A stretch of DNA of 64,000 nucleotides from an uncultured Gammaproteobacteria bacterium (GCA_964536725.1 CAZHYJ010000001.1:121081-185080), one strand, 5' to 3'. Positions 1 through 16,498 are shown, counted from the first letter of the stretch. A program made the numbers and translations. The notes: a model not told the origin generated them from the sequence alone.

Positions 1-5
1 ACTTT

Positions 6-1031
6 TTGCTTACTTCCCCAGTAATGGCGGCAGAGAATTTGAATTTTACTGAGCTGGGCGTGCGCGAAGTGTACAACAAACTGATCAACACTCTTTGGAA
101 CGTAGTGGAATTTTATAAGATGTATGCGGGCGACAATGTGGGTGAAGTAAAAAGTGAGAATGTTTTGGATAAATGGATTTTGACCAAGTTGCAGGTGTTG
201 ATTGGTGACGTAACTAAGGGAATGGAGTCATATCATTTAGTCGATGCTAGCCGTCCATTGGTTGAGTTTGTGACGGAGTTATCGCAGTGGTATGTGCGTC
301 GTTCACGTGATCGGTTTAAAGGTGAAGATGAGAGTGGTAAAAAAGCGGCAATAGCGACCTTGCACCATGTGCTGGTAGTTTTGGCGAAAACTTTGGCGCC
401 GTTTACTCCTTTTATTGCCGAGAAGATTTGGTTGGAATTAAGTGGCAAAAAAACCAGCGTGCATTTGGAAGCTTGGCCGGAAGTAGATGAAAAAATGTTG
501 GATGAAAAAGTTTTGAGTGAAATGGTATTGGCACGTAAAGTGGTAGAGTTAGGTCTAGCTGCTCGGGCGGAAACCGGAATTAAAGTGAAACAGCCGTTGC
601 AATACATCCGCTATCAATCCAACCAGCTTTCGGAACAGTTAGAAAAAATTATCGCCGAAGAGTTGAACGTAAAAGAGGTGAAACATATTCCAGAAATCCG
701 AGAGGAAAACAATTGGGTGATAAAGGAAGATGTTAATGTTCGTATTGGTATAAACACGGTGATCTCGGAAGAATTGCGTGATGAGGGTCTGGCGCGGGAG
801 TTTATTCGTTTAATTAATCTAAAACGCAAAGACCTGAATTTAACGGTTAGTGACCTGGCAGCCGTTACGTATTGGACCGATTCATTGGAATTGCAGCGAG
901 CGATAGCAAACAATGAAGCGGAAATATCACGCAAAACATTAAGTAAAAAACTATCCTTGGTTAGGGATTTGGAAGGTGCTAAAGAAGAGGTTGGTGGCGG
1001 TAAAATAGTAGTTAATGTAGAGCGATTATAG
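6..1031 (+). CDS. ileS: class I aminoacyl-tRNA synthetase C-terminal region, most likely isoleucyl-tRNA synthetase; the 5' end lies outside the window
   Basis: Reading frame is open to the window edge. It carries a WYVRRSRDRF motif and an anticodon-binding-like region typical of the Ile/Val-RS family, and there is no plausible start codon in the window. Confidence 0.55.
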   Translation: MLTSPVMAAENLNFTELGVREVYNKLINTLWNVVEFYKMYAGDNVGEVKSENVLDKWILTKLQVLIGDVTKGMESYHLVDASRPLVEFVTELSQWYVRRSRDRFKGEDESGKKAAIATLHHVLVVLAKTLAPFTPFIAEKIWLELSGKKTSVHLEAWPEVDEKMLDEKVLSEMVLARKVVELGLAARAETGIKVKQPLQYIRYQSNQLSEQLEKIIAEELNVKEVKHIPEIREENNWVIKEDVNVRIGINTVISEELRDEGLAREFIRLINLKRKDLNLTVSDLAAVTYWTDSLELQRAIANNEAEISRKTLSKKLSLVRDLEGAKEEVGGGKIVVNVERL

Positions 1032-1036
1032 AGCTA

Positions 1037-1064
1037 TTGACAGCCTTTTCAGCAGTGATACAAT
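1037..1064 (+). promoter_or_regulatory. sigma70-like promoter TTGACA-N16-TACAAT upstream of the ATP-grasp/KamA operon
   Basis: TTGACA at 1037-1042, a 16 nt spacer, and TACAAT at 1059-1064, all read directly from the sequence. Confidence 0.4.
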
Positions 1065-1164
1065 TAGCAAGAAGTTTAATCATTTTATGGACCAAAAGGT
1101 CTCTGACGACCCATTGAGTATATTTAATTTTTTTCACATAATACCCAAGATCAACTAGTTTGGC

Positions 1165-2244
1165 TTGGGTTTTTTTAATTGTCTTATGAATGGAAATGGT
1201 CACGATTTGTTTAAGGGGAAAAGGATAGCGATTTTGTACAGCGATGCCAAACGCGAATATTTTCCTACAGAACAACAATATATAACCGAGGCGGAAGTGA
1301 TTGATCGAGCAAAGATAATAGCACCGTATTTTGAAAAAATGGGTTGCGTGGTTGATTTGATACCGGGCAACGAAGAATTGACGGATATTTTGAAAAGTAA
1401 AAAACCAGATTTTGTTTTAAATTTAGTTGATTCGGTGCGTGGGGTTGAACATTTGTCCGCAATTATTCCTGCTACTTTGGAGTTGTTGAATATTCCTTAT
1501 GTCGGCACTGGTATGTTGGGGTTATCAATTAATTCGAATAAATTTTTGACCAAGAAGTTGATGGAACAGGTGGGATTACCGTTGCCGCGTTATCAATTAT
1601 TTTCTTCACCCAATGATCCATTGGATATTCATCTTAAGTTTCCATTAATTTCCAAACTGAATGAGATCCACGGAAGTGTGGCGATTGATCAAACAGCGGT
1701 GAGCGAAAATGAAGCACAGCTAAGAACGCGCATCCGTGAATTAATGGGTATTTATCACCAACCAATGTTGGTAGAAGAATTTATTGTCGGCAAAGAGTTC
1801 ACCGCTTTTATTTTGGAGGGTGCAACGCGCAAAGTTTATCTGGGGGAAAAAGTTTTTCAAGAAACGAGTGATAAATACAAAATCGCAACATTTGACGCAG
1901 TGTGGAATGATATTGGTAGCTACGATTATGCACGCGCTGATGGACACGGAATTTTGGAAAATTATGTGCGCTTGGCTTTTGATGTGTTGAAGATGGACGA
2001 CTATTCCAAGTTCGATGTGCGTCAGGATGAATCAGGGCGGTATTATTTTATCGATTGCAATGCCAATCCAGCTTTTGGTCCGATTGAGAGCGACTGTGCC
2101 ATCAGCCATGTTTTGAAAATGTATGGTATTGATTTTGACGAAATCTTGCGTCGTATTGTGGTGAATGTGGAGAAGGAAAATAATGTTAATAGCAGTAGCG
2201 ACTTCAGTTCTAATAATCCTAACTCAGAAAATATCAATAAATAA
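1165..2244 (+). CDS. ATP-grasp ligase of the D-Ala-D-Ala ligase (Ddl) family, paralog 1; the probable true start is the ATG at 1189
   Basis: 359 aa ORF. Motifs LNIPYVGTGMLGLSINSNKFLTKKLMEQVGLPLP and PMLVEEFIVGKEFTAFIL match the Ddl-family central and C-terminal ATP-grasp signatures (compare Ddl GIPYVGSGVL...KLLTKRLL and VLVEEFISGREVTVAVL). Confidence 0.7.
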   Translation: MGFFNCLMNGNGHDLFKGKRIAILYSDAKREYFPTEQQYITEAEVIDRAKIIAPYFEKMGCVVDLIPGNEELTDILKSKKPDFVLNLVDSVRGVEHLSAIIPATLELLNIPYVGTGMLGLSINSNKFLTKKLMEQVGLPLPRYQLFSSPNDPLDIHLKFPLISKLNEIHGSVAIDQTAVSENEAQLRTRIRELMGIYHQPMLVEEFIVGKEFTAFILEGATRKVYLGEKVFQETSDKYKIATFDAVWNDIGSYDYARADGHGILENYVRLAFDVLKMDDYSKFDVRQDESGRYYFIDCNANPAFGPIESDCAISHVLKMYGIDFDEILRRIVVNVEKENNVNSSSDFSSNNPNSENINK

Positions 2245-2246
2245 TT

Positions 2247-3269
2247 ATGCGCGTTGCGTTTACCTATAATGTTCGTCATGTTAAACCTGATATCAATAAT
2301 CCACAATACTTGAAAGAAGCGGAATTTGATGAGCCAGAAACAATCGAGGGGATTACTAAAGCTTTGAAAGAGTTGGGGCACGAAGTGATAAAAATAGAAG
2401 CGGATGAATTTGCTTTTGAAAAATTGCGAGCGGAAAAAAATAATATAGATATTGTTTTTAATATTGCCGAGGGGGCAAACGGAGCTGATCGCGAAGCGCA
2501 GTTGCCGGCAATTATGGAGATGTTGCAGATTCCATATACTGGACCGAAGCCGTTGGGCTATGCGGTTGGTTTGAATAAATCAGTGGCCAAAGAAATTTTG
2601 TCATATTATAAAATTGCGACACCGCATTGGATGACAGTAAATAAGATTGATTATCTGGATAGTCATGATTTTAAACATTTTCCGGCTATTGCGAAGCCGT
2701 TGGGCGAAGGTTCAAGTAAAGGAATTAGAGCTAAGAATTTTGTTAATAATGAAGAGGAGTTAAAAAAAGTAGTCAGTGATTTATTGGTTGAGTTTAATCA
2801 ACCAGTATTGGTAGAAGAGTTTCTTCCCGGACGTGAATTTACTGTGGCGGCGATTGGCCATCCGACACGAATTTTACCAATCGTGGAAATAGTTTTTGAT
2901 GCACTACCTGCTGGGATGCCAGCTTTTGACCATTATGAGGCCAAATGGATTTATGATAATCCGGAGGGGCCAGACCCACTAATTTGTCCGGCCAATATTT
3001 CTTCAGAATTAAAAGAGAAAATTGAACACCTGTGTTTAGAGGCTTTCAATGCTCTGGAAATGGAGGATTGGGCACGTTTTGATATTCGTTTGGATAAAAA
3101 TGGTGAGCCTAATTTTATTGAAGTAAATTGCCCGCCTGGGATTATTCCTGACCCCAAAGAAAATTCTCGTTTTCCTCGTGCAGCACGAGCGGGTGGTCTG
3201 GATTACGCCCAAATGATTGAAGAAATATTGCGATCATCCTGTTCGCGGTATGGGTTAGAATATAAATAA
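2247..3269 (+). CDS. ATP-grasp ligase of the Ddl family, paralog 2
   Basis: 340 aa ORF starting 3 nt after paralog 1. Carries LQIPYTGPKPLGYAVGLNKSVAKEIL, AIAKPLGEGSSKGI and PVLVEEFLPGREFTVAAIG, which match the Ddl KP..EGSS.G and VLVEEF.GRE.T motifs. Confidence 0.7.
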   Translation: MRVAFTYNVRHVKPDINNPQYLKEAEFDEPETIEGITKALKELGHEVIKIEADEFAFEKLRAEKNNIDIVFNIAEGANGADREAQLPAIMEMLQIPYTGPKPLGYAVGLNKSVAKEILSYYKIATPHWMTVNKIDYLDSHDFKHFPAIAKPLGEGSSKGIRAKNFVNNEEELKKVVSDLLVEFNQPVLVEEFLPGREFTVAAIGHPTRILPIVEIVFDALPAGMPAFDHYEAKWIYDNPEGPDPLICPANISSELKEKIEHLCLEAFNALEMEDWARFDIRLDKNGEPNFIEVNCPPGIIPDPKENSRFPRAARAGGLDYAQMIEEILRSSCSRYGLEYK

Positions 3270-3276
3270 CTGTTTT

Positions 3277-4212
3277 ATGCTTTTGTATACTCCATTATCT
3301 CCACAATTAAAAAAACTGTCGACTGTCTGTCGTGAGATTAACAAACAGTTTGTTCCAAGTAAAGTTGAAGGTCAGAATGAAAGTAAAACTTTTGTGGATC
3401 CATTATGTGAAGATGAGCACACTGTTTGTCGTGGTTTGGTCCACAAGTATCCTAATCGTGTATTGGTGTTGTTGACCATGCGTTGTGCCGCCTATTGTCG
3501 TTTTTGCACCCGACGAAGAATGGTTTCGGAGGTTGAGCAAGGTATGGTGACCGAACATGATTTGGACAAGATGGTGGTGTATATTAAAAAACACTCAGAG
3601 ATAAAAGAATTGATTTTTTCTGGCGGCGATCCTTTGGTGGTGCCGGATTTATTAAAACGTGCTTTGAAAAAATTAGGTGGTTTGCCACAAATTAAAATAA
3701 TCCGCGTGGGGACAAGATTGCATTTTTCTAACCCGGCATTGGTGGATAAAAAAGTTTTAGACGCCTTGCGAACAGTGAAAAACAAGCCATTGTATTTAAT
3801 GGTCCACTTTGAACATCCAAGTGAATTAACCGCGGCAACTAAACGTGCCGTTAAATTATTACAATCAGTTTCAACAATGTTATTGTCACAAACGGTTTCT
3901 TTGCATGGCGTAAATGATTCCGTTGACACTTTGTACAATCTTTTTTCTGGCTTGATTGAAATTGGAGTAAAGCCGTACTATCTATTTCGCTGTGATTTAG
4001 TTAAAGGAGCAGAACACTTTTTGGTTGATTTTAAAAAAGAACGAAAAATTGTTAGTGAACTGCGTCGGCAATTGAGTGGTATCGCTATGCCTTTGTATGT
4101 GATAGACGTTCCAGGTGGTAATGGTAAAATTCCAGTGCCACTTGATTTTTGGCCGCTGGCCGATGGAGTTAAATATCGTGATTTCTTGGGTAAATTAAAT
4201 AAAATCGTGTAG
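3277..4212 (+). CDS. KamA-family radical SAM (PLP-dependent) amino acid 2,3-aminomutase (lysine 2,3-aminomutase / EpmB-like)
   Basis: 311 aa ORF 8 nt downstream of the second ATP-grasp gene. Contains VHKYPNRVLVLLTMRCAAYCRFCTRRR, a CxxxCxxC cluster in the HKYP..RVL...C..YCR.CTRRR context diagnostic of the KamA family (compare LAM ...CSMYCRHCTRRR). Confidence 0.75.
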   Translation: MLLYTPLSPQLKKLSTVCREINKQFVPSKVEGQNESKTFVDPLCEDEHTVCRGLVHKYPNRVLVLLTMRCAAYCRFCTRRRMVSEVEQGMVTEHDLDKMVVYIKKHSEIKELIFSGGDPLVVPDLLKRALKKLGGLPQIKIIRVGTRLHFSNPALVDKKVLDALRTVKNKPLYLMVHFEHPSELTAATKRAVKLLQSVSTMLLSQTVSLHGVNDSVDTLYNLFSGLIEIGVKPYYLFRCDLVKGAEHFLVDFKKERKIVSELRRQLSGIAMPLYVIDVPGGNGKIPVPLDFWPLADGVKYRDFLGKLNKIV

Positions 4213-4237
4213 TTTATTTCCTATATCTTAGCTAAAA

Positions 4238-4263
4238 ATCGGGTTGACAGCCCGGTTTTTTTG
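4238..4263 (+). terminator. rho-independent terminator after the KamA-like gene
   Basis: Hairpin cggg-ttgacag-cccg followed by a T7 run. Confidence 0.5.
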
Positions 4264-5274
4264 CGTTATTATTCAGTTGTAATTCATGTTTTTAATAATG
4301 ATATGTTAAGTGTTAAAGAGGTTTTTGATTTGGCTGTAAAACTTGGCAAAGCAGCCGATCCACGTGGTGAAGCGGGTATTAAAGAATATTTGGCTGACAT
4401 CAAAAAAGATTATGATAATGCTAAGCCAAAAGATAAGGAATATTTAGACCAGGAACGTCTCCTGCATCCTTTTTCTGATAGTGGAGTGCATGTTGATATG
4501 GGTAAAACAGAAGTCAAACGTGTTTTGTCTGGTATTGATATTGATACTGGGGAAATACTTTTAGCTTCGCAACTGAGTGAGCGTGGCAAAAAAATTGATT
4601 TAGTAATCGGTCATCATCCGTTGGGGCGTGGGTTGGCTGATCTGCATGGTGTAATGGATATGCAGGTGGCAATTTTTGAACGTGCTGGTGTGCCGGTGCA
4701 TATTGCCGAAAAAATTATGGAGGAAAGAATAAGAGAAGTGGGGCGTGGTTTACATCCAATTAATCATTATCAAATTATTGATATAGCGCGATTATTAGGT
4801 GTAAATTTGATCAACACTCACACACCAACTGACAATTTGGTAAACAAGTTTTTAACAGAATTTTTTGCTAAGAAAAAAATGCGTACGGTAGGAGATCTAG
4901 TGGATGCTTTGTTAGAAATTCCAGAATATCAAGAAGCGAAGCGTCGAGGAGCTGGACCAAAACTTTTTGCTGGTAGTCCCAAGAATCGTTTAGGAAAATG
5001 GTTGTTAGAAATGACTGGTGGTACAGGCACTTCAGATTCAGTTTACGAATCGTTATCAAGTCATGGCATCAGTACGATTATTGGCATGCACATGCGTGAT
5101 AGTGCACGTATCAAAGCCAACGAACACCATATGAATGTGATAATTGCCGGTCATATTGCTTCAGATTCTTTGGGTATGAATTTGTATTTGGATGAATTAG
5201 AAAGAAAAGGGATCGAGATTGTGCCATGTAGTGGTTTAATCCGAGTGAGTCGCGTTAAAAAAGGCAAGAAATAA
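4261..5274 (+). CDS. Nif3-family (DUF34, GTP cyclohydrolase I type 2 homolog) dinuclear-metal protein; likely start at the ATG at 4303
   Basis: DLVIGHHPLG matches the NIF3 HHP motif, and the C-terminal AGHIASDSLGM matches the NIF3 C-terminal GHY.TE region. The upstream part of the listed ORF overlaps the terminator. Confidence 0.55.
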   Translation: MRYYSVVIHVFNNDMLSVKEVFDLAVKLGKAADPRGEAGIKEYLADIKKDYDNAKPKDKEYLDQERLLHPFSDSGVHVDMGKTEVKRVLSGIDIDTGEILLASQLSERGKKIDLVIGHHPLGRGLADLHGVMDMQVAIFERAGVPVHIAEKIMEERIREVGRGLHPINHYQIIDIARLLGVNLINTHTPTDNLVNKFLTEFFAKKKMRTVGDLVDALLEIPEYQEAKRRGAGPKLFAGSPKNRLGKWLLEMTGGTGTSDSVYESLSSHGISTIIGMHMRDSARIKANEHHMNVIIAGHIASDSLGMNLYLDELERKGIEIVPCSGLIRVSRVKKGKK

Positions 5275-5278
5275 TTTT

Positions 5279-5851
5279 ATGATTTCTTTGTTGCAGGGGA
5301 AAATAATCAACAACAAAAATGGGCAAGTACTGGTGATGACCGCTGGTGGTGTGGGGTATTCTGTTTATGGCAGTTTGTCAGGGTTGAAAAAATGGAAAGC
5401 CGGTAGCGAAGAAACTGTCCTAACATATCTGGTGGTGCGAGAAAATGCCCTAGATCTTTATGGTTTTGTCGACGAGGCAGAACGGGACTTATTTTTGCAC
5501 CTCATTCAAGTGAGTGGTGTTGGTCCGAAAACCGCATTGCACATTTTGTCTTTAGGCACGACAGCAGAAATTGGTTCGGCGATATCACGCGGTGATTTAA
5601 ATTACTTAACCAAAGTCAGCGGAATCGGTAAAAAAACTGCTGAGAGGATTATTATCGAACTGAGAGACAAGGTGTCGGTGTCTTTTGGTGATAGTAAAGA
5701 AGAAGTATCGGGAGTGTCTAGTGATGTAGTGGAAGGTCTGGTGTCTTTGGGTTATGCAGCTAATGATGCCCGTGAAGTAGTTAAAAAAATAAATGTTCAG
5801 GGTAAGACGACAGAACAGGTATTGCGTGAGGCGTTGCAGAATATAAAATAA
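5279..5851 (+). CDS. ruvA: Holliday junction branch-migration complex subunit RuvA
   Basis: 190 aa. N-terminal OB fold, HhH motifs LIQVSGVGPKTALHIL and LTKVSGIGKKTAERII, and a C-terminal domain III. Confidence 0.85.
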   Translation: MISLLQGKIINNKNGQVLVMTAGGVGYSVYGSLSGLKKWKAGSEETVLTYLVVRENALDLYGFVDEAERDLFLHLIQVSGVGPKTALHILSLGTTAEIGSAISRGDLNYLTKVSGIGKKTAERIIIELRDKVSVSFGDSKEEVSGVSSDVVEGLVSLGYAANDAREVVKKINVQGKTTEQVLREALQNIK

Positions 5852-5973: not shown

Positions 5974-7524
5974 TTATTTTAACTTTTCTCTCAATAGTTT
6001 TTCAGCTACTGCTGGATCGGCACTTCCCTCAGTTGCCTTCATCACCATTCCTTTTAAAAACTGTAACAAAGGCTCTTTGCCGGCTTTAAATTGTGCTACT
6101 TGCACAGGGTTGTTTTTTATCACCTCATCAATAACTGATCCTAATTGCCCTTCATCACTGACCTGGCCGTAGCCTTTTTCTTCCATAATATGGGTAGGAT
6201 CGGTGTCGGTGTTGTTGTCTAGCATCTCTTCCAATATCTTCTGAGCATTGGTAGAGTTTACTCGCTGGGAATATGACAATGCTAAAAGTTCAGCAAAATT
6301 TTCCGCTTTTAATTTTAATATGCGAATATCAATTTTTCGCTCGGCCATTGCCCCCATTAATTTTGACGCAATCCAGCCGCCGATTAATTTACCGAGTTGT
6401 TGTCTCTTGTTCTCTAATATTGTGTCACTTTCTTTTTTGTTTTCTGGTAAAGAGTGTAACCATTCGATTAATTCGGTATATACTTCTTCAGTGTAGTTTG
6501 CCCAATGAGGATCAGAAGTTAGAAGATCAGCATCGGCGTAGGAAAGACCCAACTCAGTATGGAAGCGATTTCTCTTGGCCTGGGGAAGTTCTGGCAAAAT
6601 TGTTTTCTCTGCGATAGTGAGTGGTTCAAAAGGTGGAATATCTGGCTCGGGGAAATAGCGATAGTCGGCGGCAGTTTCTTTTTCACGCTGTAAAACCGTT
6701 TCGCCTTTGTTGTCATCCCAACCGCGAGTTTGTTGTTTCCAACTTTCGCCTTTTTCCAACATTGCAGTCTGGCGTTTTATTTCAAAATCAATTGCTTTTT
6801 CTACGGCACGGAAGGAATTAATATTTTTTACTTCAACTTTAGGGTTTAGGGTGTAACCCTCTACTGGTTTCACCACGCCGTTTTCAATCGTGAATTTTCC
6901 TTCCTCTTGAAGAGAGGTATTAGCTTCACAACGCATGTGGCCTTTTTCCATGTCAGCGTTGCTTACTTCCAAATAGCGGAAGATTGTTTGTAACTCTTGG
7001 CAATATAGTTTAGCCTCAATTCCGCTTTTAATGTCAGGGTCAGACACTATTTCCACTAAGGGTACCCCGGCGCGGTTAAAATCTACCAAAGTGTCGCCGC
7101 TGGCGGAGTGTGTCAGTTTAGCTGTGTCTTCTTCTAAATGCACACGGGTGATACCGATAGTGGCTTCTTCTCGAGCGTTCTTTCTGCCAATTAAATTTAA
7201 TTCAAGTTTGCCGTGTTCGCCAATTGGTTGGTCATATTGGGAAATTTGATAACCTTTTGGTAGGTCAGGATAAAAGTAATGTTTACGATCAAACTTGCTC
7301 AGTTTGCTTATTTCACACCCTAAAGCTCGGGCAATTTTTACTGTCCACTCAATCGCGGCTTTGTTGGGTATGGGTAAAGTTCCAGGGTGAGCAAGGCAGG
7401 TCGGGCAAATATTGGTGTTAGGCGTAGAACGATCGGGGTCATTAAAACAAGGGCAAAACATCTTGCTTTTGGTCTTTAGTTCGACGTGGACTTCTAGGCC
7501 GATAATGGGTATATATTTTGGCAT
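5974..7524 (-). CDS. gatB: aspartyl/glutamyl-tRNA(Asn/Gln) amidotransferase subunit B
   Basis: 516 aa. N-terminal IIGLEVHVELKTKSKMFCPC and a C-terminal GatB/YqeY domain. Confidence 0.9.
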   Translation of the reverse strand: MPKYIPIIGLEVHVELKTKSKMFCPCFNDPDRSTPNTNICPTCLAHPGTLPIPNKAAIEWTVKIARALGCEISKLSKFDRKHYFYPDLPKGYQISQYDQPIGEHGKLELNLIGRKNAREEATIGITRVHLEEDTAKLTHSASGDTLVDFNRAGVPLVEIVSDPDIKSGIEAKLYCQELQTIFRYLEVSNADMEKGHMRCEANTSLQEEGKFTIENGVVKPVEGYTLNPKVEVKNINSFRAVEKAIDFEIKRQTAMLEKGESWKQQTRGWDDNKGETVLQREKETAADYRYFPEPDIPPFEPLTIAEKTILPELPQAKRNRFHTELGLSYADADLLTSDPHWANYTEEVYTELIEWLHSLPENKKESDTILENKRQQLGKLIGGWIASKLMGAMAERKIDIRILKLKAENFAELLALSYSQRVNSTNAQKILEEMLDNNTDTDPTHIMEEKGYGQVSDEGQLGSVIDEVIKNNPVQVAQFKAGKEPLLQFLKGMVMKATEGSADPAVAEKLLREKLK

Positions 7525-7605
7525 ATTTGAGGGAAATTAACGTTGTAATTCTAACATTAAATAAAAAAAACGTCCACTTTTTTAAAGTAGACGTTTTTGG
7601 TGGGG

Positions 7606-8361
7606 TTAGATTGTGGGTGGCGGTGTATTAACTGTTGGTGTTTCTTTGGCGTTGATATAGAGACCGACCAGAGAGGTAATTAAAGCTGGGGTTATAATTA
7701 TATTAAACAATGACGCTAACGAGCTGTTTACAATTCCCAAAGTGGTAGTTGATATTCCTTTTGCATATCCAAGCACGGTCATGATAATTAGTTGTATGAT
7801 GGTCGAGATGATCGCATAGACAACAATGGTGACCAATATCCTCCAGGCAATTTTCCACCATCTTCCAACTACTAAAGATTTGCTGGCGGAAAATGAATTT
7901 TTCCAGTTTTTATTATCTAAAATTATTGCGTAAGAGGTAAAATTGTACCAAACAAAAAAGATTATACCAGGGATAACAAACAGAATTGAACCGAGGGCAA
8001 TTAGGAGTGTTACTAGGATCGAGTTGATAATCAAAGGAAAAATTAGACGGCTGTTGTTGGTCAGAGTTTCTTTCCATCCCAATGGAGTTTGGCCTGTCCA
8101 TGCGGCAGCAGCAGTTTGGATAATGCCAGTTGTAATCCACAGACTAAAAACTAATGAGGTGATGTAGACTAAAAATATGATCAAGTCGTTGATTAAACGG
8201 TTGGCTTTTAGACGGAGTTCGATTTCAATACCAATATATCCAGCCAAAAAGACAACTATTCCAGTTAGAGTTAGTAGGATTAGATAGGGGAGAAAATGGC
8301 GCCAGTAGCGACGATAGTTGCTCCAACCCTGGCCAATTAAATCTGTGGCACTTGTTAACAT
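7606..8361 (-). CDS. hypothetical polytopic membrane protein
   Basis: 251 aa with multiple hydrophobic helices and no recognisable catalytic motif. Confidence 0.35.
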   Translation of the reverse strand: MLTSATDLIGQGWSNYRRYWRHFLPYLILLTLTGIVVFLAGYIGIEIELRLKANRLINDLIIFLVYITSLVFSLWITTGIIQTAAAAWTGQTPLGWKETLTNNSRLIFPLIINSILVTLLIALGSILFVIPGIIFFVWYNFTSYAIILDNKNWKNSFSASKSLVVGRWWKIAWRILVTIVVYAIISTIIQLIIMTVLGYAKGISTTTLGIVNSSLASLFNIIITPALITSLVGLYINAKETPTVNTPPPTI

Positions 8362-9071
8362 ATATTTTTATTTAAAATTTTGTTTAGAAGATTGCTTGCT
8401 TCTTGTTTCATTATATCAATTTTCTGGTTTCCATTCAAATGAATTACTTTGGTACCGCGCTTAGTAAAAATATTTTTGAGCTCAGAAGAAAAAAATTGTT
8501 TGGCGGATTTTTTTAGGAAGGGTAAATTTTCAAAGATAGCGTCATCTTGTTTTCCGGTACGTGCACTTAGTCGGTGAGCTGCTTCAGTAGGGTCAATTTT
8601 AACTAAGACAAGAAAATCCGGGCGATTGGCCAGCGCTAATTTATTGCCTGGTAAAGCGCAGATTTTTTTCATAGTAAATTTGGGATCAGGCAGAGACTGA
8701 TAGGCAAGTGAGGTAGTAATACTACGATCTTGAATAATGCATTTGCCGGCTTTTAGTAGGGGAATGTGTATTTTAGTGTAAAGTATTAGACGGTCTAGGG
8801 AGTATGCTTCAGCTAGTGCTTGCACTGGATAGGCGGTGCCCTTTTTGATTAATTCTTGACGGATAACCGCTCCAACTCCAACATAGGTTGGTTCTGCAGA
8901 AAAGATAAAATCATAACCATTAAGTTCTGACAATTCTGGAAAACGTCCGGTCTCTTGCATGTATTTTTTTAAATCAAAAACAGCGTTTCCTTGTTTGGTT
9001 AATACTTCTTTCCAAGTTTCGATGATGGTACTTTTTCCTCCGCCGTCGATACTATCAACGATGATGAACAT
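8355..9071 (-). CDS. tmk: thymidylate kinase (dTMP kinase)
   Basis: P-loop IVDSIDGGGKST, an AEPTYVG region, and the DRS..TSLAYQ (DR[YH] lid) motif of Tmk. Confidence 0.65.
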   Translation of the reverse strand: MFIIVDSIDGGGKSTIIETWKEVLTKQGNAVFDLKKYMQETGRFPELSELNGYDFIFSAEPTYVGVGAVIRQELIKKGTAYPVQALAEAYSLDRLILYTKIHIPLLKAGKCIIQDRSITTSLAYQSLPDPKFTMKKICALPGNKLALANRPDFLVLVKIDPTEAAHRLSARTGKQDDAIFENLPFLKKSAKQFFSSELKNIFTKRGTKVIHLNGNQKIDIMKQEASNLLNKILNKNIC

Positions 9072-9073
9072 AT

Positions 9074-9565
9074 TTACTTTTTATAAATTACAAAAGAAAA
9101 ACCGTCATGATCTTCGCGCCAGGTTTCGTGCCAAATGTTTGGGTCTATTTCTGGAAAAAACACGTCGCCATCAAATTTTTGATGTACATGGGTAATGTAA
9201 AGAGTGTCGACGCGGTCGATTGTTTGACGGTAAATGCTTGCGCCACCACAAATAAAAATATCTTCATCTTTTAATTGAGTGAAAACATCGTCTAAATTAT
9301 TTAAAACTCGTACTCCTTCTGGTGCTTGGTAATTCTTATCTAAAGTAACTACTACAGTTTGTCTTCCGGGCAATGGTTTGCCTAAATATCCTAAGATTGA
9401 TTCGAATGTTGCTTGGCCCATAACACAAGTTTTGCCCAGGGTATTTCTTTTGAAATACTGGAAATCTTCTGGTATGTGCCAGGGTATTTTATTTTTTACT
9501 CCAATGCAGTTGTTGTCAGCGATAGCGGCAATTAAAGAAAAAGGCATATTAAACAGCGATATCAA
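9074..9565 (-). CDS. folA: dihydrofolate reductase
   Basis: 163 aa. LIAAIADNNCIGVKNKIPWHIPEDFQYFKRNTLGKTCVMGQATFESI is the canonical DHFR N-terminus. Confidence 0.85.
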   Translation of the reverse strand: MISLFNMPFSLIAAIADNNCIGVKNKIPWHIPEDFQYFKRNTLGKTCVMGQATFESILGYLGKPLPGRQTVVVTLDKNYQAPEGVRVLNNLDDVFTQLKDEDIFICGGASIYRQTIDRVDTLYITHVHQKFDGDVFFPEIDPNIWHETWREDHDGFSFVIYKK

Positions 9566-10421
9566 ATTTAATAGATGGGTAACTTTGATAATTTAAAACT
9601 TCAGTATCTGTATATTGCCAATCAAAAATAGAAGTGAAATTTTTTGTTTCTAGAGTGGGTAATGGATAAGTGGTGTAGTCGCGAGATAGCTGTTCTTTTG
9701 CTCCAGCAATGTGATTCTCATAAATATGGACATCACCCAAGAAACCGATCAACTTACCTTCCTTTAGTCCAGTTTCTTTTGCCAACAAATGTAGCATTGT
9801 AGCGTAGCTAGCAATATTAAATGGCAAACCAAGCATGGTGTCAACTGAGCGTTGATTCCACATCAAATTTATTTTTCCATTAATAACAGTTACCTGAAAA
9901 CCGTAATGACAATATGGTGGCATCGCTTTATCTACGTCTAGTGGGTTCCATGCCATTACAATCATGCGGCGATCACCGGGATCGGTTTTTAGTTTGTCTA
10001 CAACTTTCTTAAGTTGGTCAACTCCTTGTCCCGTATAATCAGTTTGGTAATCTTTGTAAGTTGCTCCAAAATGTCTCCACTCCCATCCATAAATAGTACC
10101 TAAATCTCTCTCTTCTAACATTTTTTGTTTTGTTTCTGGATCATTGGCGTATTTAATTTTTAAAGGTGTGCACCACTCATCCCAGATATGATTATTTCTA
10201 TCCTGGAGCCATTTTTTATCAGTTATGCCTTTGATAAAAAACTCTAGCTCTGAAGCAACTAGACGAAAGGGTACTTTTTTGGTGGTAAGAAGTGGAAAAC
10301 CATTGCTCATATCATGCTCGAACATCGCTCCGGCAATGGCTAGTGTATCAATACCCGTACGATTATGTTTTAATTCACCTTTCTCGAGTATTTGTTTTAC
10401 AATATCTAAGTATGCCTTCAT
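9549..10421 (-). CDS. thyA: thymidylate synthase (ThyA type)
   Basis: 290 aa. YLDIVKQILEKGELKHNRTGIDTLAIAGAMFEHDMSNGFPLLTTKKVPFRLVASELEFFIKG and the catalytic region PPYCHYGFQ. Confidence 0.9.
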   Translation of the reverse strand: MKAYLDIVKQILEKGELKHNRTGIDTLAIAGAMFEHDMSNGFPLLTTKKVPFRLVASELEFFIKGITDKKWLQDRNNHIWDEWCTPLKIKYANDPETKQKMLEERDLGTIYGWEWRHFGATYKDYQTDYTGQGVDQLKKVVDKLKTDPGDRRMIVMAWNPLDVDKAMPPYCHYGFQVTVINGKINLMWNQRSVDTMLGLPFNIASYATMLHLLAKETGLKEGKLIGFLGDVHIYENHIAGAKEQLSRDYTTYPLPTLETKNFTSIFDWQYTDTEVLNYQSYPSIKFDIAV

Positions 10422-10855: not shown

Positions 10856-11432
10856 ACTTTATTTTATTTAAAACATCCTCAGTTTGATTGTACAATTCTT
10901 CAAAATCACCATTATTAGTAATGGTAAATTTGGCCGTACTGCCCAATTTTTTTGTTAGACTGTCGGCTTCTGCTTGTTCGTTAGCCAAAAATTCTTCATA
11001 GGTTTTTTCGCTATCACCTGGATTCTCTGCTCTCTTTACTAACCTTTCCCAACGAATCTTGGGATCAGCGGTGATATAGATCAAGTTAAATCCAGGCATC
11101 TTTTCTAGATAAATAATATCAGTGGGCCGGCGAATGCCGTCCACTATCACAACTTCGTTTGAGTCATTTTCGACATCAAACGCAATTACCTTGCTCATTA
11201 AATCTTGACCAAAATTCTCACGTAATACTTTTGATATTAATTGTAGGTTGTCGCGACTTTCTGGGATATATAGTCGTTGTACAACATCGCGCAACATGGT
11301 GGAGTAGCGGTAGGCGTTGATATTGTGTTTTTCTTTGAGATATTTACAGATCGTACCTTTGCCAGACGCGATGTCGCCGACAAATCCCAGGACTATCTTA
11401 TTGTTTGGCATATTTTGTACTTTTATATTCAC
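10839..11432 (-). CDS. P-loop nucleoside/nucleotide kinase (dNMP-kinase or dephospho-CoA-kinase-like)
   Basis: 197 aa with a Walker A motif GFVGDIASGKGT. It lies inside the thymidylate operon, and its family assignment is uncertain. Confidence 0.45.
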   Translation of the reverse strand: MNIKVQNMPNNKIVLGFVGDIASGKGTICKYLKEKHNINAYRYSTMLRDVVQRLYIPESRDNLQLISKVLRENFGQDLMSKVIAFDVENDSNEVVIVDGIRRPTDIIYLEKMPGFNLIYITADPKIRWERLVKRAENPGDSEKTYEEFLANEQAEADSLTKKLGSTAKFTITNNGDFEELYNQTEDVLNKIKYASQN

Positions 11433-11877
11433 GATATTTTACGCCGGCTAAATCCAACAACTTGCGCGAAACTTGCCAGATGGCAGCGTCGTGATATTTG
11501 TCGCTTTCATAAATTATTTCAGTAACACCTTTTTGGATAATAGTTTTTGCGCATTCGTTGCAAGGGAAGAGGGTGCAATATATCTTGCAATCCTTAGTTG
11601 GATTATTGGCATTATAGATAGCGTTTTCTTCGGCGTGGCAGATGTAGGCATATTTTGTCTCAGTAGTTCCGCCTTCTCTTTCCCAAGGCAATGCGTCGGT
11701 ATCGATGCCGCGTGGCCAACCATTATATCCCATCCCCATTACTACGTTGTTTTGATCTACCACCACCGCACCAGCCTGAGTGGATGGATCTTTGGAGCGT
11801 TCAGAGATAATATGCGCCATTTGCATAAAACACTCGTCCCAAGAGATGTAATCTTTTCTAGCTTCGGTCATATTCAA
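11398..11877 (-). CDS. dCMP deaminase (CMP/dCMP deaminase zinc-binding family)
   Basis: HAEENAI and PCNECAK zinc-ligand motifs; 159 aa. Confidence 0.85.
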   Translation of the reverse strand: MNMTEARKDYISWDECFMQMAHIISERSKDPSTQAGAVVVDQNNVVMGMGYNGWPRGIDTDALPWEREGGTTETKYAYICHAEENAIYNANNPTKDCKIYCTLFPCNECAKTIIQKGVTEIIYESDKYHDAAIWQVSRKLLDLAGVKYREYKSTKYAKQ

Positions 11878-12010
11878 AATGAATGAGAGAAATGGAAAAT
11901 GTAGTTTTCCATTTCCGAGTGAATGAGAATATATCGCTCTAGCGTATATATATTTTTTAGTTTAAAAGTACCTTAATTTTAGCAAAGTTAAGGTATTCTG
12001 CCAAGTAACA

Positions 12011-12036
12011 AAAAACCTCCATTTTATGGAGGTTTT
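12011..12036. terminator. bidirectional hairpin terminator at the 3' end of the 12035..13144 gene
   Basis: aaaaacctccat-ttt-atggaggtttt is a perfect 7 bp stem flanked by A and T runs. Confidence 0.5.
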
Positions 12037-13144
12037 AGTGGATAATTATTTTGCCTTGATCAGCATCAACTGTCACCCAATCGCCGTCTTTTAGTTTTTT
12101 CATCGCGTCTTTTACGTTGGCAACATAAGGTTTCTTTAGTTCTCGACTGACAATCGCGGCGTGTGACAAGACAGTGCCTTGCTCCGTGATTATTCCGCCT
12201 GCTTTTTTGATGTAGGGGAGATGTTGGAATGTTATTAATGGACTTACCAGAATTTCATTTTTTTGGAAGGCGATTTTAGTAGCACCATTTTTTACCTTTC
12301 TAATTTTTCCTTTAATTTTTCCAGGACCAATACAGATTCCGTGTAAGTAATCAGTGTGGCGAGTGATGGTAATTATGGTTTTATTAAGCAACTTGTCTAG
12401 TATGCGATTGTAATCGACAAAACTGATGTTTTTTTTATGGTCGACAATAAACTCAAAATAACCTTTTAAATAATTGTGAGTACTAAAAGTGGAGGATAAT
12501 TCTTTTTTTAGAAGATGCTGTTCTTGTTTTTTGTTAACCAATAGTTTTTTGACGGTTTGTTTGATCAGCTTTATCGTCTTCTTATCGTGGTTAGAAAAAT
12601 GCCATTTTTTATAATCATAGTAAAAGACCAGACTTTCTCCCCGATAAGTACCTTGAGAAAAATGGATGATGTGGTCTTTTATCAATTCTCCCCAGATTCC
12701 TTTGTTGTTTATACAGAAAACAGCAGAGTGAGTAATATTTGTGGGCTGCTTTACAAGTTCGTAGCGGAACTTTGTCGTATCAATTTTGGTTTTTTTTAAC
12801 CAAAACAGACATTGGTGTAGTGTTTTTTGTAGGCGAATCTTTGGGAGGTTGTTTTTTAGGGGAAGTAATTTAAAAAGGTACAAGCCGTTATCTTTTTTCT
12901 TAATTAAGGAGATTAATTGATTTTCTAACTCTTCTTTTTTGCTCGGTGCGATGTAGATAGCTGGCAAAAACGGAAGATTAATTATCCCATTTAATATTTT
13001 TAGTCGACCTCTTTTTGTGTAATCTTCTTTTTGGAATTTTTCGGTTCCAGGAATGTCAAGATGCCGCATCCACTCTGTTATAGAAGGAAATTGATTGTCC
13101 TTTTTATCTTCATTGGCCATATTGTGCTTTTTTGTATTTTTCAA
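12035..13144 (-). CDS. protein with a C-terminal PEP-utilising-enzyme mobile (phosphohistidine) domain and an uncharacterised N-terminal region
   Basis: The C-terminus GGIITEQGTVLSHAAIVSRELKKPYV matches the PEP-utilising mobile domain (PF00391) catalytic-His region; the N-terminal ~250 aa have no recognisable motif. The probable start is the internal Met at about 13120. Confidence 0.55.
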   Translation of the reverse strand: MKNTKKHNMANEDKKDNQFPSITEWMRHLDIPGTEKFQKEDYTKRGRLKILNGIINLPFLPAIYIAPSKKEELENQLISLIKKKDNGLYLFKLLPLKNNLPKIRLQKTLHQCLFWLKKTKIDTTKFRYELVKQPTNITHSAVFCINNKGIWGELIKDHIIHFSQGTYRGESLVFYYDYKKWHFSNHDKKTIKLIKQTVKKLLVNKKQEQHLLKKELSSTFSTHNYLKGYFEFIVDHKKNISFVDYNRILDKLLNKTIITITRHTDYLHGICIGPGKIKGKIRKVKNGATKIAFQKNEILVSPLITFQHLPYIKKAGGIITEQGTVLSHAAIVSRELKKPYVANVKDAMKKLKDGDWVTVDADQGKIIIH

Positions 13145-14159
13145 CCGTGTTGATTATCTTTTTTGCTACGGCTATTGGATAAGTTGGGCGATTGCCAGAA
13201 GATGTTTCTATACAAAACATTATTCCGTTTATATCGTCGAGAATCATATTGGTTAGATCTGTGATGTCAGAGCGAGAAGGCGTAAAGTTGTTTACTGTAC
13301 TTTCCAATATCTGGGTCGAGACAATTACAAGCCTATTTTGTTCTTTGGCGATTTTAGTAATCTCTTTCTGGTATATGCCAGTTTGTTCAAAAGGTATATT
13401 GACAGCTATTTCTCCGCGGTCGATTAATACATGGGAATAATCTTTGTTTTGGCAAATTTTAGTTAATTCTTCGCGATTATGATAGTTTTCGATTTTGACA
13501 ATAATTTTTGTATGTTGGAGCTCCTCCTTGGCTTTAATTAACTTTATTATTTTTTCATTTAAACCTTCTGATATATAAGAAATGGATATAAATTGCGGTT
13601 GCAGAGAGGCGATTTTGTCTATTGCATCCGTATATATTTTAAGGATTTCTATATCGTCTTTTTCGTGTTCTATATTAAATGTCTTCATGTAGTGGAAGAG
13701 CCCGTTATTCAAAAAACGTACCCCAATCGTGTCGCTATCAATTATATCAGTCACCTGTAATGATACTTCGCCATCACCAATTGTTACTGTCTGGTTGATA
13801 GCTACTTTTTCGCCTATTTTTTTTGTGTCCACTGGTATAAACAAATTGCAGTCTGGGCTATAGGTAGCTGATTTAATGGTGTGTTCATCGTTTTCTCGTA
13901 CGGTGAACATCTTAGAATCAAAGTCTCCTAACCTTATTTTTGTTAATGGTAGATCAATTAAAATACCGATATTAGCATGTAGATCGTCGATGATATTTTG
14001 CCCAGTTCTTACTAGTTCAAGATGTTCCTCGATTACTTTGTAGGAAAAATTATAACGCAAAACATCTGCTCCAGCGAGAATTATTTTGCGAATTTTATCT
14101 TCTCTTAGTGATCCGTGGCCGATGGTAGCGATAATCATCATAAATTGATGATAAAACAT
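13110..14159 (-). CDS. pyk: pyruvate kinase catalytic core (barrel domain), without the C-terminal regulatory domain
   Basis: IIATIGHGSL...ADVLRYNFSY, ILIDLPLTKIR and the PK signature KIIVKIENYHNRE; LIDRGEIAV corresponds to MVARGDLG. At 349 aa it is too short to include the PK C-terminal domain. Confidence 0.6.
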   Translation of the reverse strand: MFYHQFMMIIATIGHGSLREDKIRKIILAGADVLRYNFSYKVIEEHLELVRTGQNIIDDLHANIGILIDLPLTKIRLGDFDSKMFTVRENDEHTIKSATYSPDCNLFIPVDTKKIGEKVAINQTVTIGDGEVSLQVTDIIDSDTIGVRFLNNGLFHYMKTFNIEHEKDDIEILKIYTDAIDKIASLQPQFISISYISEGLNEKIIKLIKAKEELQHTKIIVKIENYHNREELTKICQNKDYSHVLIDRGEIAVNIPFEQTGIYQKEITKIAKEQNRLVIVSTQILESTVNNFTPSRSDITDLTNMILDDINGIMFCIETSSGNRPTYPIAVAKKIINTVEKYKKAQYGQ

Positions 14160-15010: not shown

Positions 15011-16381
15011 ATGTCTATCAAGCCAAAATTCCATCTTCTTACCTTTGGATGTTCAATGAACAGGAACGACTCAGAGCGAGTCGTTAGTTTGCTTTTGGGT
15101 CTGGGATTTGAAGAGACAGCTAATCCAGCCGAGGCAGATTTATTAATGGTTAATACCTGCAGCGTACGTCAAAGTGCGGAGGATCGGGTGTGGGGATTTG
15201 TACGCAATTGGCAGGAGCTCAGAATTAAAAAGCCAAATTTGATTATTGCGATTACCGGTTGTATGCCCGGGCGTGATGAAAAGGGGGAGATAAAAAAGAG
15301 GTTGCCTGGGGTGGATCTGTTTTTTCCGATTGCTGAGTTGGCATATTTACCTGCACGATTAAAAGCGCTTAATCCGGATTTAATTGTTGGGGAAGTCGAC
15401 GACTTGGCAGACTATTTTTCTATCGATCCAAAACGGGTCGAAGCGCATCGGGTCTGTGTTGCCATTCAAACGGGTTGTAATAATTTTTGTACTTACTGTG
15501 TAGTGCCGAAGGCACGTGGCCCAGAACACAATCGTCCGGTTGAAGAAATAATGCGAGAGATAAAAATGGCGATTGCCAAGGGGGCGAAGGAGATAGTCTT
15601 GTTGGGGCAGGTGGTGAATAATTATCGGGCGCCAGATCCAGAAAATTTTTGTGGTTGCAATCCGTTTTTTAACGAAGCAATTCCGTTGGAGAAAAAAGAT
15701 GCTAGGTTTAACAAAGATTTTGCGGCGTTACTTTGGGAGGTCAATCAAGTTGAAGGGTTGGAACGACTACATTGGACTGCTGCTGATCCGCAGTATTTTA
15801 ATGAATACTTGATCCAAGCGCTTACTTTACCGAAGCAAATTAACTTCTTGCATTTGCCAGTACAAAGTGGTGATAATGAGATTTTAAAAAAGATGAATCG
15901 TCACTACACGCGCGAAGACTATATTACTTTGGTAAAGAAGATTAAAGCAGTATGCCCGACAATGGCGCTTGGCACTGATTTCATCGTTGGTTTTTGTGGT
16001 GAGACCGAAGAGCAGTTTGCCAACACTTTGGATTTATACAAACAGTGTGATTTTGATATCTCTTATCACGCACGTTACAGCGAACGGAGTGGTACAGCCG
16101 CCGCTAAAGCTTTTAAAGATGATGTGTCGCGAGCAGTAAAAAAAGAACGTTGGGACCGGGTGCAGGATTTGTTGAAAGAAACAACCGAAAGGAAGAACCG
16201 TGTATTTAAAGGGCAGGTTGTTTCGGTTTTAGTTGATAAATGCGAACAGGGGGTGTGTATGGGATATTCGTCGGAAATGAAACTGGTACACTTTGCGGGT
16301 AGTCAAGATTTGGTTGGAACCGTTGTTGATGTTAAAATAACGTGGACAGATACTTGGTTGTTGCGCGGAGAGGTTAGATAG
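15011..16381 (+). CDS. miaB: MiaB-family tRNA methylthiotransferase (radical SAM)
   Basis: N-terminal MTTase domain FGCSMNRNDSE, a radical-SAM CxxxCxxC cluster (CNNFCTYC), a C-terminal TRAM domain, and adjacency to miaA. Confidence 0.8.
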   Translation: MSIKPKFHLLTFGCSMNRNDSERVVSLLLGLGFEETANPAEADLLMVNTCSVRQSAEDRVWGFVRNWQELRIKKPNLIIAITGCMPGRDEKGEIKKRLPGVDLFFPIAELAYLPARLKALNPDLIVGEVDDLADYFSIDPKRVEAHRVCVAIQTGCNNFCTYCVVPKARGPEHNRPVEEIMREIKMAIAKGAKEIVLLGQVVNNYRAPDPENFCGCNPFFNEAIPLEKKDARFNKDFAALLWEVNQVEGLERLHWTAADPQYFNEYLIQALTLPKQINFLHLPVQSGDNEILKKMNRHYTREDYITLVKKIKAVCPTMALGTDFIVGFCGETEEQFANTLDLYKQCDFDISYHARYSERSGTAAAKAFKDDVSRAVKKERWDRVQDLLKETTERKNRVFKGQVVSVLVDKCEQGVCMGYSSEMKLVHFAGSQDLVGTVVDVKITWTDTWLLRGEVR

Positions 16382-16389
16382 TAATTTTA

Positions 16390-16492
16390 GGGGTTATGGG
16401 TTTGATAATTTTTTCGCTTTCCTCGGCTGCGAAGCCTCAGGGATGAGGCCTTGGCCTCATAACCCGCTCAAAAAATATCAAACCCATAACCG
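16390..16492. repeat. nested-palindrome intergenic repeat, copy 2 (subfamily I)
   Basis: Outer inverted repeat ggttatgggtttgataatttttt / aaaaaatatcaaacccataacc encloses the core cgctttcctcggctgcgaagcctcagggatgaggccttggcctcataacccgctc, about 85% identical to the copy 1 core. It lies between miaB and miaA. Confidence 0.7.
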
Positions 16493-16498
16493 ACTACT

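Follow-up and report, generated by a model that had tools for sequence, protein, structure and literature searches.

To our knowledge, the fates of beta-lysine outside antibiotic biosynthesis and fermentation are few and comprise one osmolyte and one protein modification. In pyrrolysine biosynthesis (PylB/PylC), lysine is rearranged to a non-standard amino acid by a radical-SAM enzyme, and the product is coupled via an amide bond by an ATP-grasp ligase of the Ddl superfamily; PylB belongs to a different radical-SAM family and makes methylornithine without PLP. Paired ATP-grasp/Ddl-like ligases are known from MysC/MysD (mycosporine-like amino acids) and Ngg (N-acetylglutaminylglutamine amide), where common amino acids are joined into a small cytoplasmic amide by two ATP-dependent condensations in succession, whether or not a GNAT takes part. 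Proteins are the targets of other ATP-grasp enzymes, such as RimK and those of the tubulin-tyrosine-ligase-like group. In the AblA/AblB compatible-solute pathway (N-epsilon-acetyl-beta-lysine), synthesis of beta-lysine by a KamA-family enzyme is followed by its derivatisation by a neighbouring gene's product (PMC9128505, PMC11337218). The EpmA/EpmB pathway (YjeA/YjeK), which acts on Lys34 of EF-P, relies on a short KamA-family lysine 2,3-aminomutase, and YjeK is without a C-terminal multimerisation domain (PMC2821294).

The window studied here, the whole 64,000-nt stretch of DNA that was analysed, harbors a three-gene unit in which two Ddl-like ligases, designated G1 and G2, are packed against a KamA-family mutase, whereas the E. 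coli EpmA/EpmB pathway contains no such ligases. We lean towards reading the genes as the form that a widespread cassette takes in Patescibacteria; this cassette may make beta-lysine and ligate it into a small amide or peptide. The three ORFs are all on the plus strand and tightly packed (1186-2244, 2247-3269 and 3277-4212), with a promoter close to the consensus ahead of them and a strong terminator behind. The arrangement given in the original prediction is thus confirmed, except that the gaps from stop to start are 2 nt between ORF1 and ORF2 and 7 nt between ORF2 and ORF3, not 3 and 8 nt as it had stated. ORF1 could start at 1165 or 1186, and the ATG at 1186 is the start common to its relatives.

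ORF3 (3277-4212, + strand) encodes a protein of 311 aa that is predicted to be a short KamA-family radical-SAM/PLP lysine 2,3-aminomutase. The protein matches Radical_SAM/LAM_C, passes the KamA family model TIGR00238 (209.3 bits vs. a cut-off of 199.2) and matches the C. subterminale LAM structure 2A5H at 1e-59; both the family and the EpmB-like size had been anticipated correctly. However, it remains below the cut-offs of the equivalog models for AblA (TIGR03820; 237.8 vs. 525.4 bits) and EpmB (TIGR03821; 214.1 vs. 369.3 bits), as well as those for the glutamate and arginine enzymes, and its model scores decrease from AblA_like_2 (258) through AblA (238) to EpmB (214). The BLOSUM distance between the aminomutase and E. 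coli EpmB is 0.72, and that between LAM and EpmB is 0.69. By these comparisons, the predicted enzyme forms a clade of its own, outside the EpmB and AblA clades.

Residues C70/C74/C77, R79, D240, D277 and K284 correspond to C125/C129/C132, R134, D293, D330 and K337 of 2A5H. The CxxxCxxC cysteines and the PLP lysine are invariant in 15 homologs, and all 121 of 121 KamAs compared (CPR and cassette types) keep the cluster cysteines, R134, D293, D330 and the PLP lysine K337. In LAM, Asp293 and Asp330 are ligands of the lysine epsilon-ammonium group, and Arg134 is the ligand of the carboxylate. Since both lysine-binding aspartates are invariant, a glutamate- or arginine-type mutase was rejected, and the conversion of L-lysine to beta-lysine by this KamA-family enzyme is well supported by sequence. 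The original prediction had also proposed a check of the PLP lysine and the Zn-binding cysteines of LAM; the former is kept, and the LAM Zn site is absent from the aminomutase, which has Ser at the Cys268 position and no C-terminal CxCxxC. The protein continues for only ~ 27 residues after the PLP lysine and, like YjeK, lacks the C-terminal multimerisation domain.

Both ligase genes encode predicted Ddl-superfamily ATP-grasp amide ligases, G1 (1186-2244, + strand, 352 aa) and G2 (2247-3269, + strand, 340 aa), with HMM matches to Dala_Dala_lig_C (PF07478) of 40 and 109 bits, respectively. Ddl membership was judged against the curated NF002378/TIGR01205 cut-off, and with NF002378, the scores of 86 bits for G1 and 181 bits for G2 are both below the required 243. 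G2 falls into a clade of 98 sequences (A), and G1 groups with the ligase that comes second in the wider cassette (B); E. coli DdlB, whose sequence was checked, lies outside both. In DdlB numbering, which is used throughout, the two clades conserve the ATP/Mg catalytic residues K97, K144, E180, E187, D257, E/D270 and N272, of which G1 keeps K97, K144, E180, E187, D257, D270 and N272, and the likeness to Ddl/Van ligases extends over the ATP/Mg and transition-state residues K97, K144, E180, E187, R255, D257, E270 and N272. The AF2 model of G2 (pLDDT 92) has the same three-domain ATP-grasp fold, and its best PDB folds are Ddl (TM 0.73-0.82, 24-26% identity). In contrast, the substrate-site signature of Ddl (His63, Glu68, Ser150, Tyr216 and Ser281-Leu282) is altered: Trp replaces Tyr216 in 96 of the 98 A-type and 65 of the 69 B-type sequences, and His63 by Glu in both types and Glu68 by Arg in the A type are near-invariant replacements. 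G1 and G2 both carry Y216W and H63E, and G2 also E68R; S150 is A or G in the B type, and Leu282 is variable. Of the ATP-grasp motifs ascribed to both ORFs, KP..EGSS.G is present only in ORF2, while ORF1 has SKLNEIHGSVAI there.

No mur or dcw genes flank any ligase locus examined, and the cassette ligases are present in Methanothrix, an archaeon without murein. The sub-cut-off scores, the altered signature residues, the lack of mur neighbours and the presence in Methanothrix together indicate that G1 and G2 share the Ddl fold yet are not Ddl, and argue against an ordinary ddl that has been duplicated. Judging by their clades, they come from paralogous families that separated anciently, B and A, which refutes the reading of the tandem ligases as duplicates of one another. 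A peptidoglycan-stem variant, suggested earlier as a product, received no direct support. Cassette ligases are routinely labelled 'D-alanine--D-alanine ligase', the name that NCBI gives to some A-type homologs. A survey of CPR genomes contains many divergent van-type matches, and such divergent Ddl-like matches were counted into CPR glycopeptide-resistance repertoires (PMC8651080); the cassette ligases may be among them.

Is the grouping of these genes a chance adjacency, or does it recur? Among genome loci seeded with KamA, Ddl-like genes adjoin KamA in 32 of 78 distinct loci, and the B-A-KamA trio is present in ~ 20 of those 32. The reciprocal metagenome count took in A-type-seeded loci whose flank amounted to 3.5 kb or more (n = 32): KamA was present in 24/32, two or more Ddl-like genes in 27/32 and a small GNAT in 18/32. 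Hosts of the cassette include Ignavibacteria, Ca. Saccharicenans, Planctomycetota and Methanothrix, and the usual order outside the CPR is A-B-GNAT-KamA. At least seven CPR loci contain A+KamA pairs without B, and it is the A type, represented by G2, that most constantly accompanies KamA. In addition, a KamA–A-type ligase fusion of 698 aa was found (L097; the same protein was called on two contigs), and Methanothrix harundinacea possesses a B-type ligase–GNAT fusion. The KamA-ligase grouping is not due to chance, and the proposed synteny check was thus answered by recurrence across many lineages and by fusion proteins. L090 is the closest relative with a long contig, and its G2 protein shows 85% identity; it has lost KamA by deletion except for a 127-nt remnant, whereas G1, G2 and EpmA are intact; ligases can thus persist without an adjacent mutase. 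Beyond lineage-specific synteny, the metagenome set contained no transporter, peptidase or other constant partner, which argues for common intracellular substrates. The placement of U467 and U501 in one family was rejected, as they have no mutual similarity; U467 has a faint GSP_synth match (E = 0.02) and no PDB match, and U501 has a weak MurL-like match (51 bits).

These data have to be weighed against the possibility that the mutase does no more than take the place of EpmB in the CPR, serving EpmA and EF-P only, with G1 and G2 as unrelated neighbours (e.g., cell-wall D-amino-acid ligases) retained by inherited gene order. The source organism does have an EpmA-like gene, which the original prediction had suggested looking for; it lies ~ 9 kb upstream of ORF1 (277 bits, just below the cut-off of 287). 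Moreover, epmA and the trio share one gene string in two loci (L011 and L016), where epmA passes the equivalog cut-off (300.8 > 286.9) and where the flanks, IleRS … NIF3-RuvA, match those of the window; KamA and EpmA are adjacent in a third locus (L083), and in CPR relatives epmA is located beside an efp of the PGKG type. The short, YjeK-like form of the mutase and the survival of both ligases after KamA loss in L090 are also consistent with such a role, as are the many CPR loci with KamA alone. Roughly half of all loci seeded with KamA, most of them from other Patescibacteria lineages and Armatimonadota, have no Ddl-like neighbours, and there EF-P modification would suffice as an explanation for the mutase. 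However, the adjacency of KamA and ligase holds across unrelated contexts and phyla, including Methanothrix, which has no EF-P, EpmA or murein; the two activities are fused in one protein; none of the ligase loci adjoins mur or dcw genes; and the mutase scores lower with EpmB than with either AblA_like_2 or AblA and is as far from E. coli EpmB as LAM is. We therefore regard an exclusive EpmB role as unlikely. In the source organism, the aminomutase probably feeds EpmA-dependent EF-P beta-lysylation as well, given the EpmA-like gene upstream and the CPR epmA-efp(PGKG) pairs, and these same genes leave the earlier suggestion of a route that bypasses or replaces EpmA unsupported. Two further candidates were discarded on reading their sequences: c39, beside KamA, is not EF-P and reads as a nucleoside-diphosphate kinase, and the neighbouring 472-aa protein, tentatively taken for EpmA, is an AspRS-like synthetase.

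A role of G1 and G2 as protein-modifying ligases, whereby a target such as EF-P or a ribosomal protein would receive beta-lysine or further residues, much as with RimK or EpmA, appears improbable. Their co-operonic position with epmA in L011 and L016, the RimI-like nature of the accompanying GNATs, the lack of an exporter in the cassette and the precedent of protein-modifying ATP-grasp enzymes would agree with it, but the nearest fold and sequence are those of Ddl, a ligase that makes a small-molecule dipeptide, rather than those of the RimK type, no conserved target or carrier gene travels with the cassette, and archaea without EF-P and EpmA possess it. Least probable of all, and in our opinion very much so, is a variant of the AblA/AblB pathway with the ligases as peripheral genes. 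A GNAT does lie directly upstream of KamA in most non-CPR cassettes, whose KamA scores nearest AblA (476 vs. a cut-off of 525), and the KamA of Methanothrix was interpreted as an ablA for the synthesis of this osmolyte, with the adjacent ligases left unremarked (PMC9128505). Nevertheless, no GNAT was found at positions 1-5851 of the window, the GNATs of the other cassettes are small (~ 160 aa) and RimI-like, with no match to an AblB model in NCBIfam, and neither the two conserved families of ligases nor the fusion of KamA with a ligase would have a role in a two-enzyme pathway.

The reading that we prefer, the synthesis of beta-lysine and its ligation into a small amide or peptide, suggests the following pathway. 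With the help of SAM, a [4Fe-4S] cluster and PLP, the KamA-family enzyme would turn L-lysine into beta-lysine (3,6-diaminohexanoate). As the fusion and the constant adjacency suggest, G2 would then use ATP to form an acyl-phosphate and, from it, an amide bond involving beta-lysine, and G1 may make a second amide bond; compared with AblA/AblB, the two added ATP-grasp ligases imply amide-bond formation beyond acetylation. In most non-CPR versions, the small GNAT would also acetylate a free amine, a step for which the window has no gene. The candidate product is a small beta-lysine-containing amide, peptide or oligomer, which could serve as a cytoplasmic solute, an envelope building block or otherwise, and the beta-lysine pool would probably be shared with EpmA-dependent EF-P beta-lysylation. 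More broadly, and tentatively, A and B ligases, KamA and usually a GNAT might make an undescribed beta-lysine-containing, often N-acetylated, peptide or oligomer common to Patescibacteria, Ignavibacteria, Ca. Saccharicenans, Planctomycetota and Methanothrix, with the Patescibacteria version drawing on the mutase that feeds EpmA.

The analogy with PylB/PylC drawn in the original prediction, a radical-SAM lysine mutase with a Ddl-like ligase, is a fair one, although the cassette mutase is of the KamA type and has no PylD, tRNA or synthetase context. PylC was not matched by G1 or G2 in PDB sequence searches and was absent from the best 50 fold matches of G2, and neither the PylB nor the PylC family was among the best 25 NCBIfam or Pfam matches listed per protein. 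From MysC/MysD and Ngg, to which it is likened by description and family-level matches only, the cassette differs in its substrates and in the presence of an aminomutase. Literature searches supported the original impression of an undescribed arrangement: no description of the cassette was found in the full-text literature, in a search that did not cover the 2009 Iyer/Aravind amidoligase survey, the likeliest earlier prediction. The conserved coupling of beta-lysine synthesis to a pair of dedicated amide ligases suggests an undescribed metabolite in very different anaerobes, including bacteria with some of the smallest genomes, in which few biosynthetic pathways are kept. With three to four genes and common substrates, the system is small and therefore open to direct heterologous expression.

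Expression of the unit would begin at a strong promoter right after ileS and proceed past a terminator-like hairpin in a 120-nt leader. The sigma-70-type promoter-like site (1037-1064, + strand) comprises TTGACA (1037-1042), a 16-nt spacer and TACAAT (1059-1064) with a TG extended -10, as predicted; with 11/12 matches, it has the top score within 800-4500, begins 6 nt past the ileS stop codon and is also kept in L090. It is followed by a putative leader ORF of 23 codons, MDQKVSDDPLSIFNFFHIIPKIN (1087-1158, + strand), whose ATG and first codons are kept in L090, and by a terminator-like hairpin of 11 bp with a U7 run (1143-1177, + strand) that ends 9 nt short of the ORF1 ATG. The hairpin appears in the MFE and centroid folds alike, and its stem and U-run are kept in L090; the leader as a whole is no more stable than its shuffles (z = -0.45), the terminal hairpin alone being robust. 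Since this hairpin stands between the promoter and ORF1, transcription must read through it, and it is a candidate attenuator or leaky ileS terminator. The unit is thus not quite as self-contained as predicted, with the uORF and the terminator-like hairpin intervening before ORF1. No riboswitch or other known RNA was matched by Rfam in the 120-nt leader at gathering or permissive thresholds. The idea that a gene upstream of G1 encodes a precursor peptide or a carrier protein (RiPP or LysW type) was dropped because the small ORFs there, a 60-aa ORF in Kuenenbacteria and the 23-codon uORF in the window, are not conserved across loci. At the other end, the predicted hairpin-T7 terminator was verified as an intrinsic terminator with a GC-rich hairpin and a U7 run (4234-4262, + strand; -18.1 kcal/mol, z = -3.95), and 0/200 shuffles fold equally well. 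Its loop contains the -35 hexamer of the promoter-like site of the next gene (TTGACA at 4244, a 17-nt spacer and TATTAT).

The genome from which the window comes belongs to the Patescibacteria (CPR) and is close to Magasanikbacteria. The window carries three plus-strand ORFs flanked upstream by the 3' end of ileS and downstream by a NIF3-like gene and ruvA. They encode two Ddl-like ATP-grasp ligases, G1 (1186-2244) and G2 (2247-3269), and a short radical-SAM/PLP aminomutase, KamA (3277-4212), with intergenic gaps of 2 nt (G1/G2) and 7 nt (G2/KamA). The KamA protein has a 100% identical copy on a 201-kb contig, and its close homologs all carry the name Patescibacteria or Magasanikbacteria. The promoter and terminator of the original prediction were recovered: the site at 1037-1064 (TTGACA, 16-nt spacer, TACAAT, with a TG) is the best-scoring promoter-like site in the region, and a strong terminator (z = -3.95) lies at 4234-4262. 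Two elements of the 120-nt leader had been missed, namely, a uORF of 23 codons (1087-1158) and a hairpin of 11 bp followed by U7 (1143-1177), which ends 9 nt 5' of the ORF1 ATG. Both are kept in L090, a relative with an 85% identical G2 protein. No Rfam match was found for the leader, and no Shine-Dalgarno sequence is visible for ORF1. The hairpin and U7 resemble either an attenuator or an ileS terminator that leaks; thus, trio transcripts, whether from their own promoter or from ileS, must cross a terminator-like structure. A near-consensus promoter-like site at 4244-4272 (TTGACA, 17-nt spacer, TATTAT), whose -35 lies inside the loop of the trio terminator, appears to drive the NIF3-like gene (4303-5274), a gene that comes after KamA in 12 related loci.

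One question was whether this mutase belongs with EpmB, with lysine 2,3-aminomutase (LAM) or in a separate clade. Profile searches upheld the KamA-family assignment (209 bits vs a cut-off of 199), while all equivalog models stayed below their cut-offs: AblA_like_2 (258/396), AblA (238/525), EpmB (214/369), glutamate (213/650) and arginine (206/600). The protein forms its own clade, and its distance to the reference sequence, E. coli EpmB, is 0.72, compared with 0.69 for LAM; KamA thus falls outside both the EpmB and the AblA equivalogs. Its only solved relative is 2A5H, the C. subterminale LAM (E = 1e-59), with which it shares the cluster cysteines, Arg134, the PLP lysine K337 and D293 and D330, the aspartates that grip the lysine epsilon-ammonium in LAM. 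The Zn cysteine, whose conservation had been in question together with that of the PLP lysine, is absent, as is the C-terminal domain. The shared residues are invariant in 15 KamA homologs and essentially invariant in 121 KamAs, the exceptions being one D293→Glu (L037, a Magasanikbacteria MAG locus) and two truncated sequences. To judge from its sequence, KamA very probably acts as a lysine 2,3-aminomutase.

The two tandem ligases were originally assigned to the Ddl family. At the level of fold this stands: sequence searches of the PDB matched both to Ddl and Van structures only, and the predicted structure of G2 (pLDDT 92) superposes on Ddl with a TM of 0.73-0.82 at 24-26% identity. Both proteins nevertheless score under the Ddl cut-off of 243 bits (G1, 86; G2, 181). 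A neighbour-joining tree of the Ddl-like proteins encoded next to KamA (175 in all) separates into two clades without overlap, namely, the A type (n=98, with G2) and the B type (n=69, with G1), and E. coli DdlB, whose sequence was verified, lies outside both. The ATP-grasp catalytic residues are retained in both clades and the Ddl substrate-site signature is altered (DdlB numbering): Y216W in 96/98 A-type and 65/69 B-type sequences and H63E in both clades. The A type further shows E68R, the B type has A or G in place of S150, and position 282 varies. The clade split and the altered signature therefore mark G1 and G2 as two old, distinct paralogs; on sequence grounds, they are neither a recent tandem duplicate nor Ddl proper.

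The gene neighbourhood proved to be conserved well beyond the window. In a KamA-seeded survey of 80 GTDB species loci (78 distinct), Ddl-like genes stood beside KamA in 32 of the 78, about 20 of these 32 with the order B-A-KamA and at least seven with A-KamA only. A reciprocal survey seeded with the A-type ligase covered 80 metagenome loci; among the 32 whose flanks reached 3.5 kb or more, KamA was present in 24, two or more Ddl-like genes in 27 and a small RimI-like GNAT in 18. The commonest order in this set was A-B-GNAT-KamA; another was KamA-A with a divergent B. The KamAs of these cassettes are nearer AblA (476/525), with the lysine pocket kept. Exact look-ups placed the cassette in Ca. 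Saccharicenans, Ignavibacteria and Methanothrix harundinacea, and its hosts further include Planctomycetota. Two fusions were found: KamA with an A-type ligase (L097, 5954-8050, 698 aa, called independently on two contigs) and a B-type ligase with GNAT (L133 of M. harundinacea, 8005-9573, 522 aa). No further constant partner gene was found in the loci examined. In L037, two ~793-aa double ATP-grasp fusion proteins (6215-8596 and 11137-13524), which join an L-amino-acid-ligase-type part to a Ddl-like part, lie on either side of KamA.

We lean slightly towards a pathway in which KamA makes beta-lysine and the A-type and then the B-type ligase form amide bonds. By its residues, KamA would turn lysine into beta-lysine; the A-type ligase, which is its fusion partner and most constant neighbour, would make an amide bond involving beta-lysine via an acyl-phosphate; the B-type ligase would add a second amide bond; and the GNAT, in cassettes having one, would cap an amine. 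That the cassette lacks an exporter and makes do with four genes speaks for common intracellular substrates. PylB/PylC, the parallel originally drawn, and AblA/AblB follow the same logic of making an odd lysine isomer and then derivatising it, and the EpmA/EF-P route has the mutase in common; the trio fell outside Ddl, AblA, EpmB and PylC alike. A plain AblA/AblB osmolyte pathway is very improbable. Osmolyte papers on Methanothrix (PMC9128505) and ANME treat kamA/ablB and leave the ligases unmentioned. A full-text literature search found no description of the cassette, although an earlier in silico prediction may exist. Methanothrix is known to lack murein as well as EF-P/EpmA, and what the ligases do in general can therefore be neither the synthesis of D-Ala-D-Ala nor the modification of EF-P. 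That G1 and G2 modify proteins is a doubtful alternative. An EpmB-only role for KamA, with the ligases unrelated, is unlikely, although somewhat less so.

An EpmA-like gene of 344 aa lies ~9 kb upstream of G1, on a contig whose trio region is identical to that of the window, at 277 bits vs a cut-off of 287. L011 and L016 share the flanking genes of the trio and are arranged as ileS-epmA-SanA-like-CxxCxxCC-G1-G2-KamA, with epmA above both equivalog cut-offs, and in L083 KamA adjoins EpmA. Other Patescibacteria (L173, 10001-11708; L174; L175) carry a conserved string rpsF-ssb-rpsR-epmA-efp, and their EF-P has the PGKG loop, a hallmark of beta-lysylated EF-P (PMC2821294); this route appears to be common in Patescibacteria. 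KamA would be the obvious source of beta-lysine for EpmA, and the non-EpmA route once suggested for attaching beta-lysine is therefore unneeded. In L090 (GCA_964535515.1), the closest long-contig relative, KamA is deleted between G2 and NIF3, leaving a 127-nt remnant (11032-11158) in which the ATG of KamA and 14 nt matching the KamA 3' end survive; G1, G2, NIF3 and the upstream EpmA are intact. We read this as the recent loss of only the mutase, and it weakens the case for ligases that depend strictly on the adjoining mutase.

Several other neighbours were observed. The SanA-like DUF218 membrane protein and the CxxCxxCC (PF03692) protein lie between epmA and the ligases in the Patescibacteria loci L011 (6516-7734), L016 and L009; L001 and L009 carry a third ligase and a 269-aa GNAT-like protein, with M17 and U32 peptidases after KamA. 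An unannotated ~470-aa protein is encoded directly upstream of a short KamA in Armatimonadota and some other MAGs (L051, L054, L055, L058, L062-L064, L068, L071-L073, L077-L079, L081 and L082), often with glutaredoxin after and trypsin-like peptidases upstream. It has only a faint GSP_synth pre-ATP-grasp match (E = 0.02) and may be a different amide ligase paired with the same mutase. A ~500-aa protein encoded directly upstream of a ligase, of either the A or the B type, in six loci (L026, L037, L059, L069, L095 and L157) weakly matches MurL, the UDP-MurNAc-L-Ala-L-Glu epimerase (51 bits, far under the cut-off of 700). Finally, the window carries DHFR and ThyA beside tmk (9074-10421, minus strand), and at the matching position L090 has a 485-aa ThyX (Thy1) gene (15931-17388); the type of thymidylate synthase has evidently been swapped between these close relatives.
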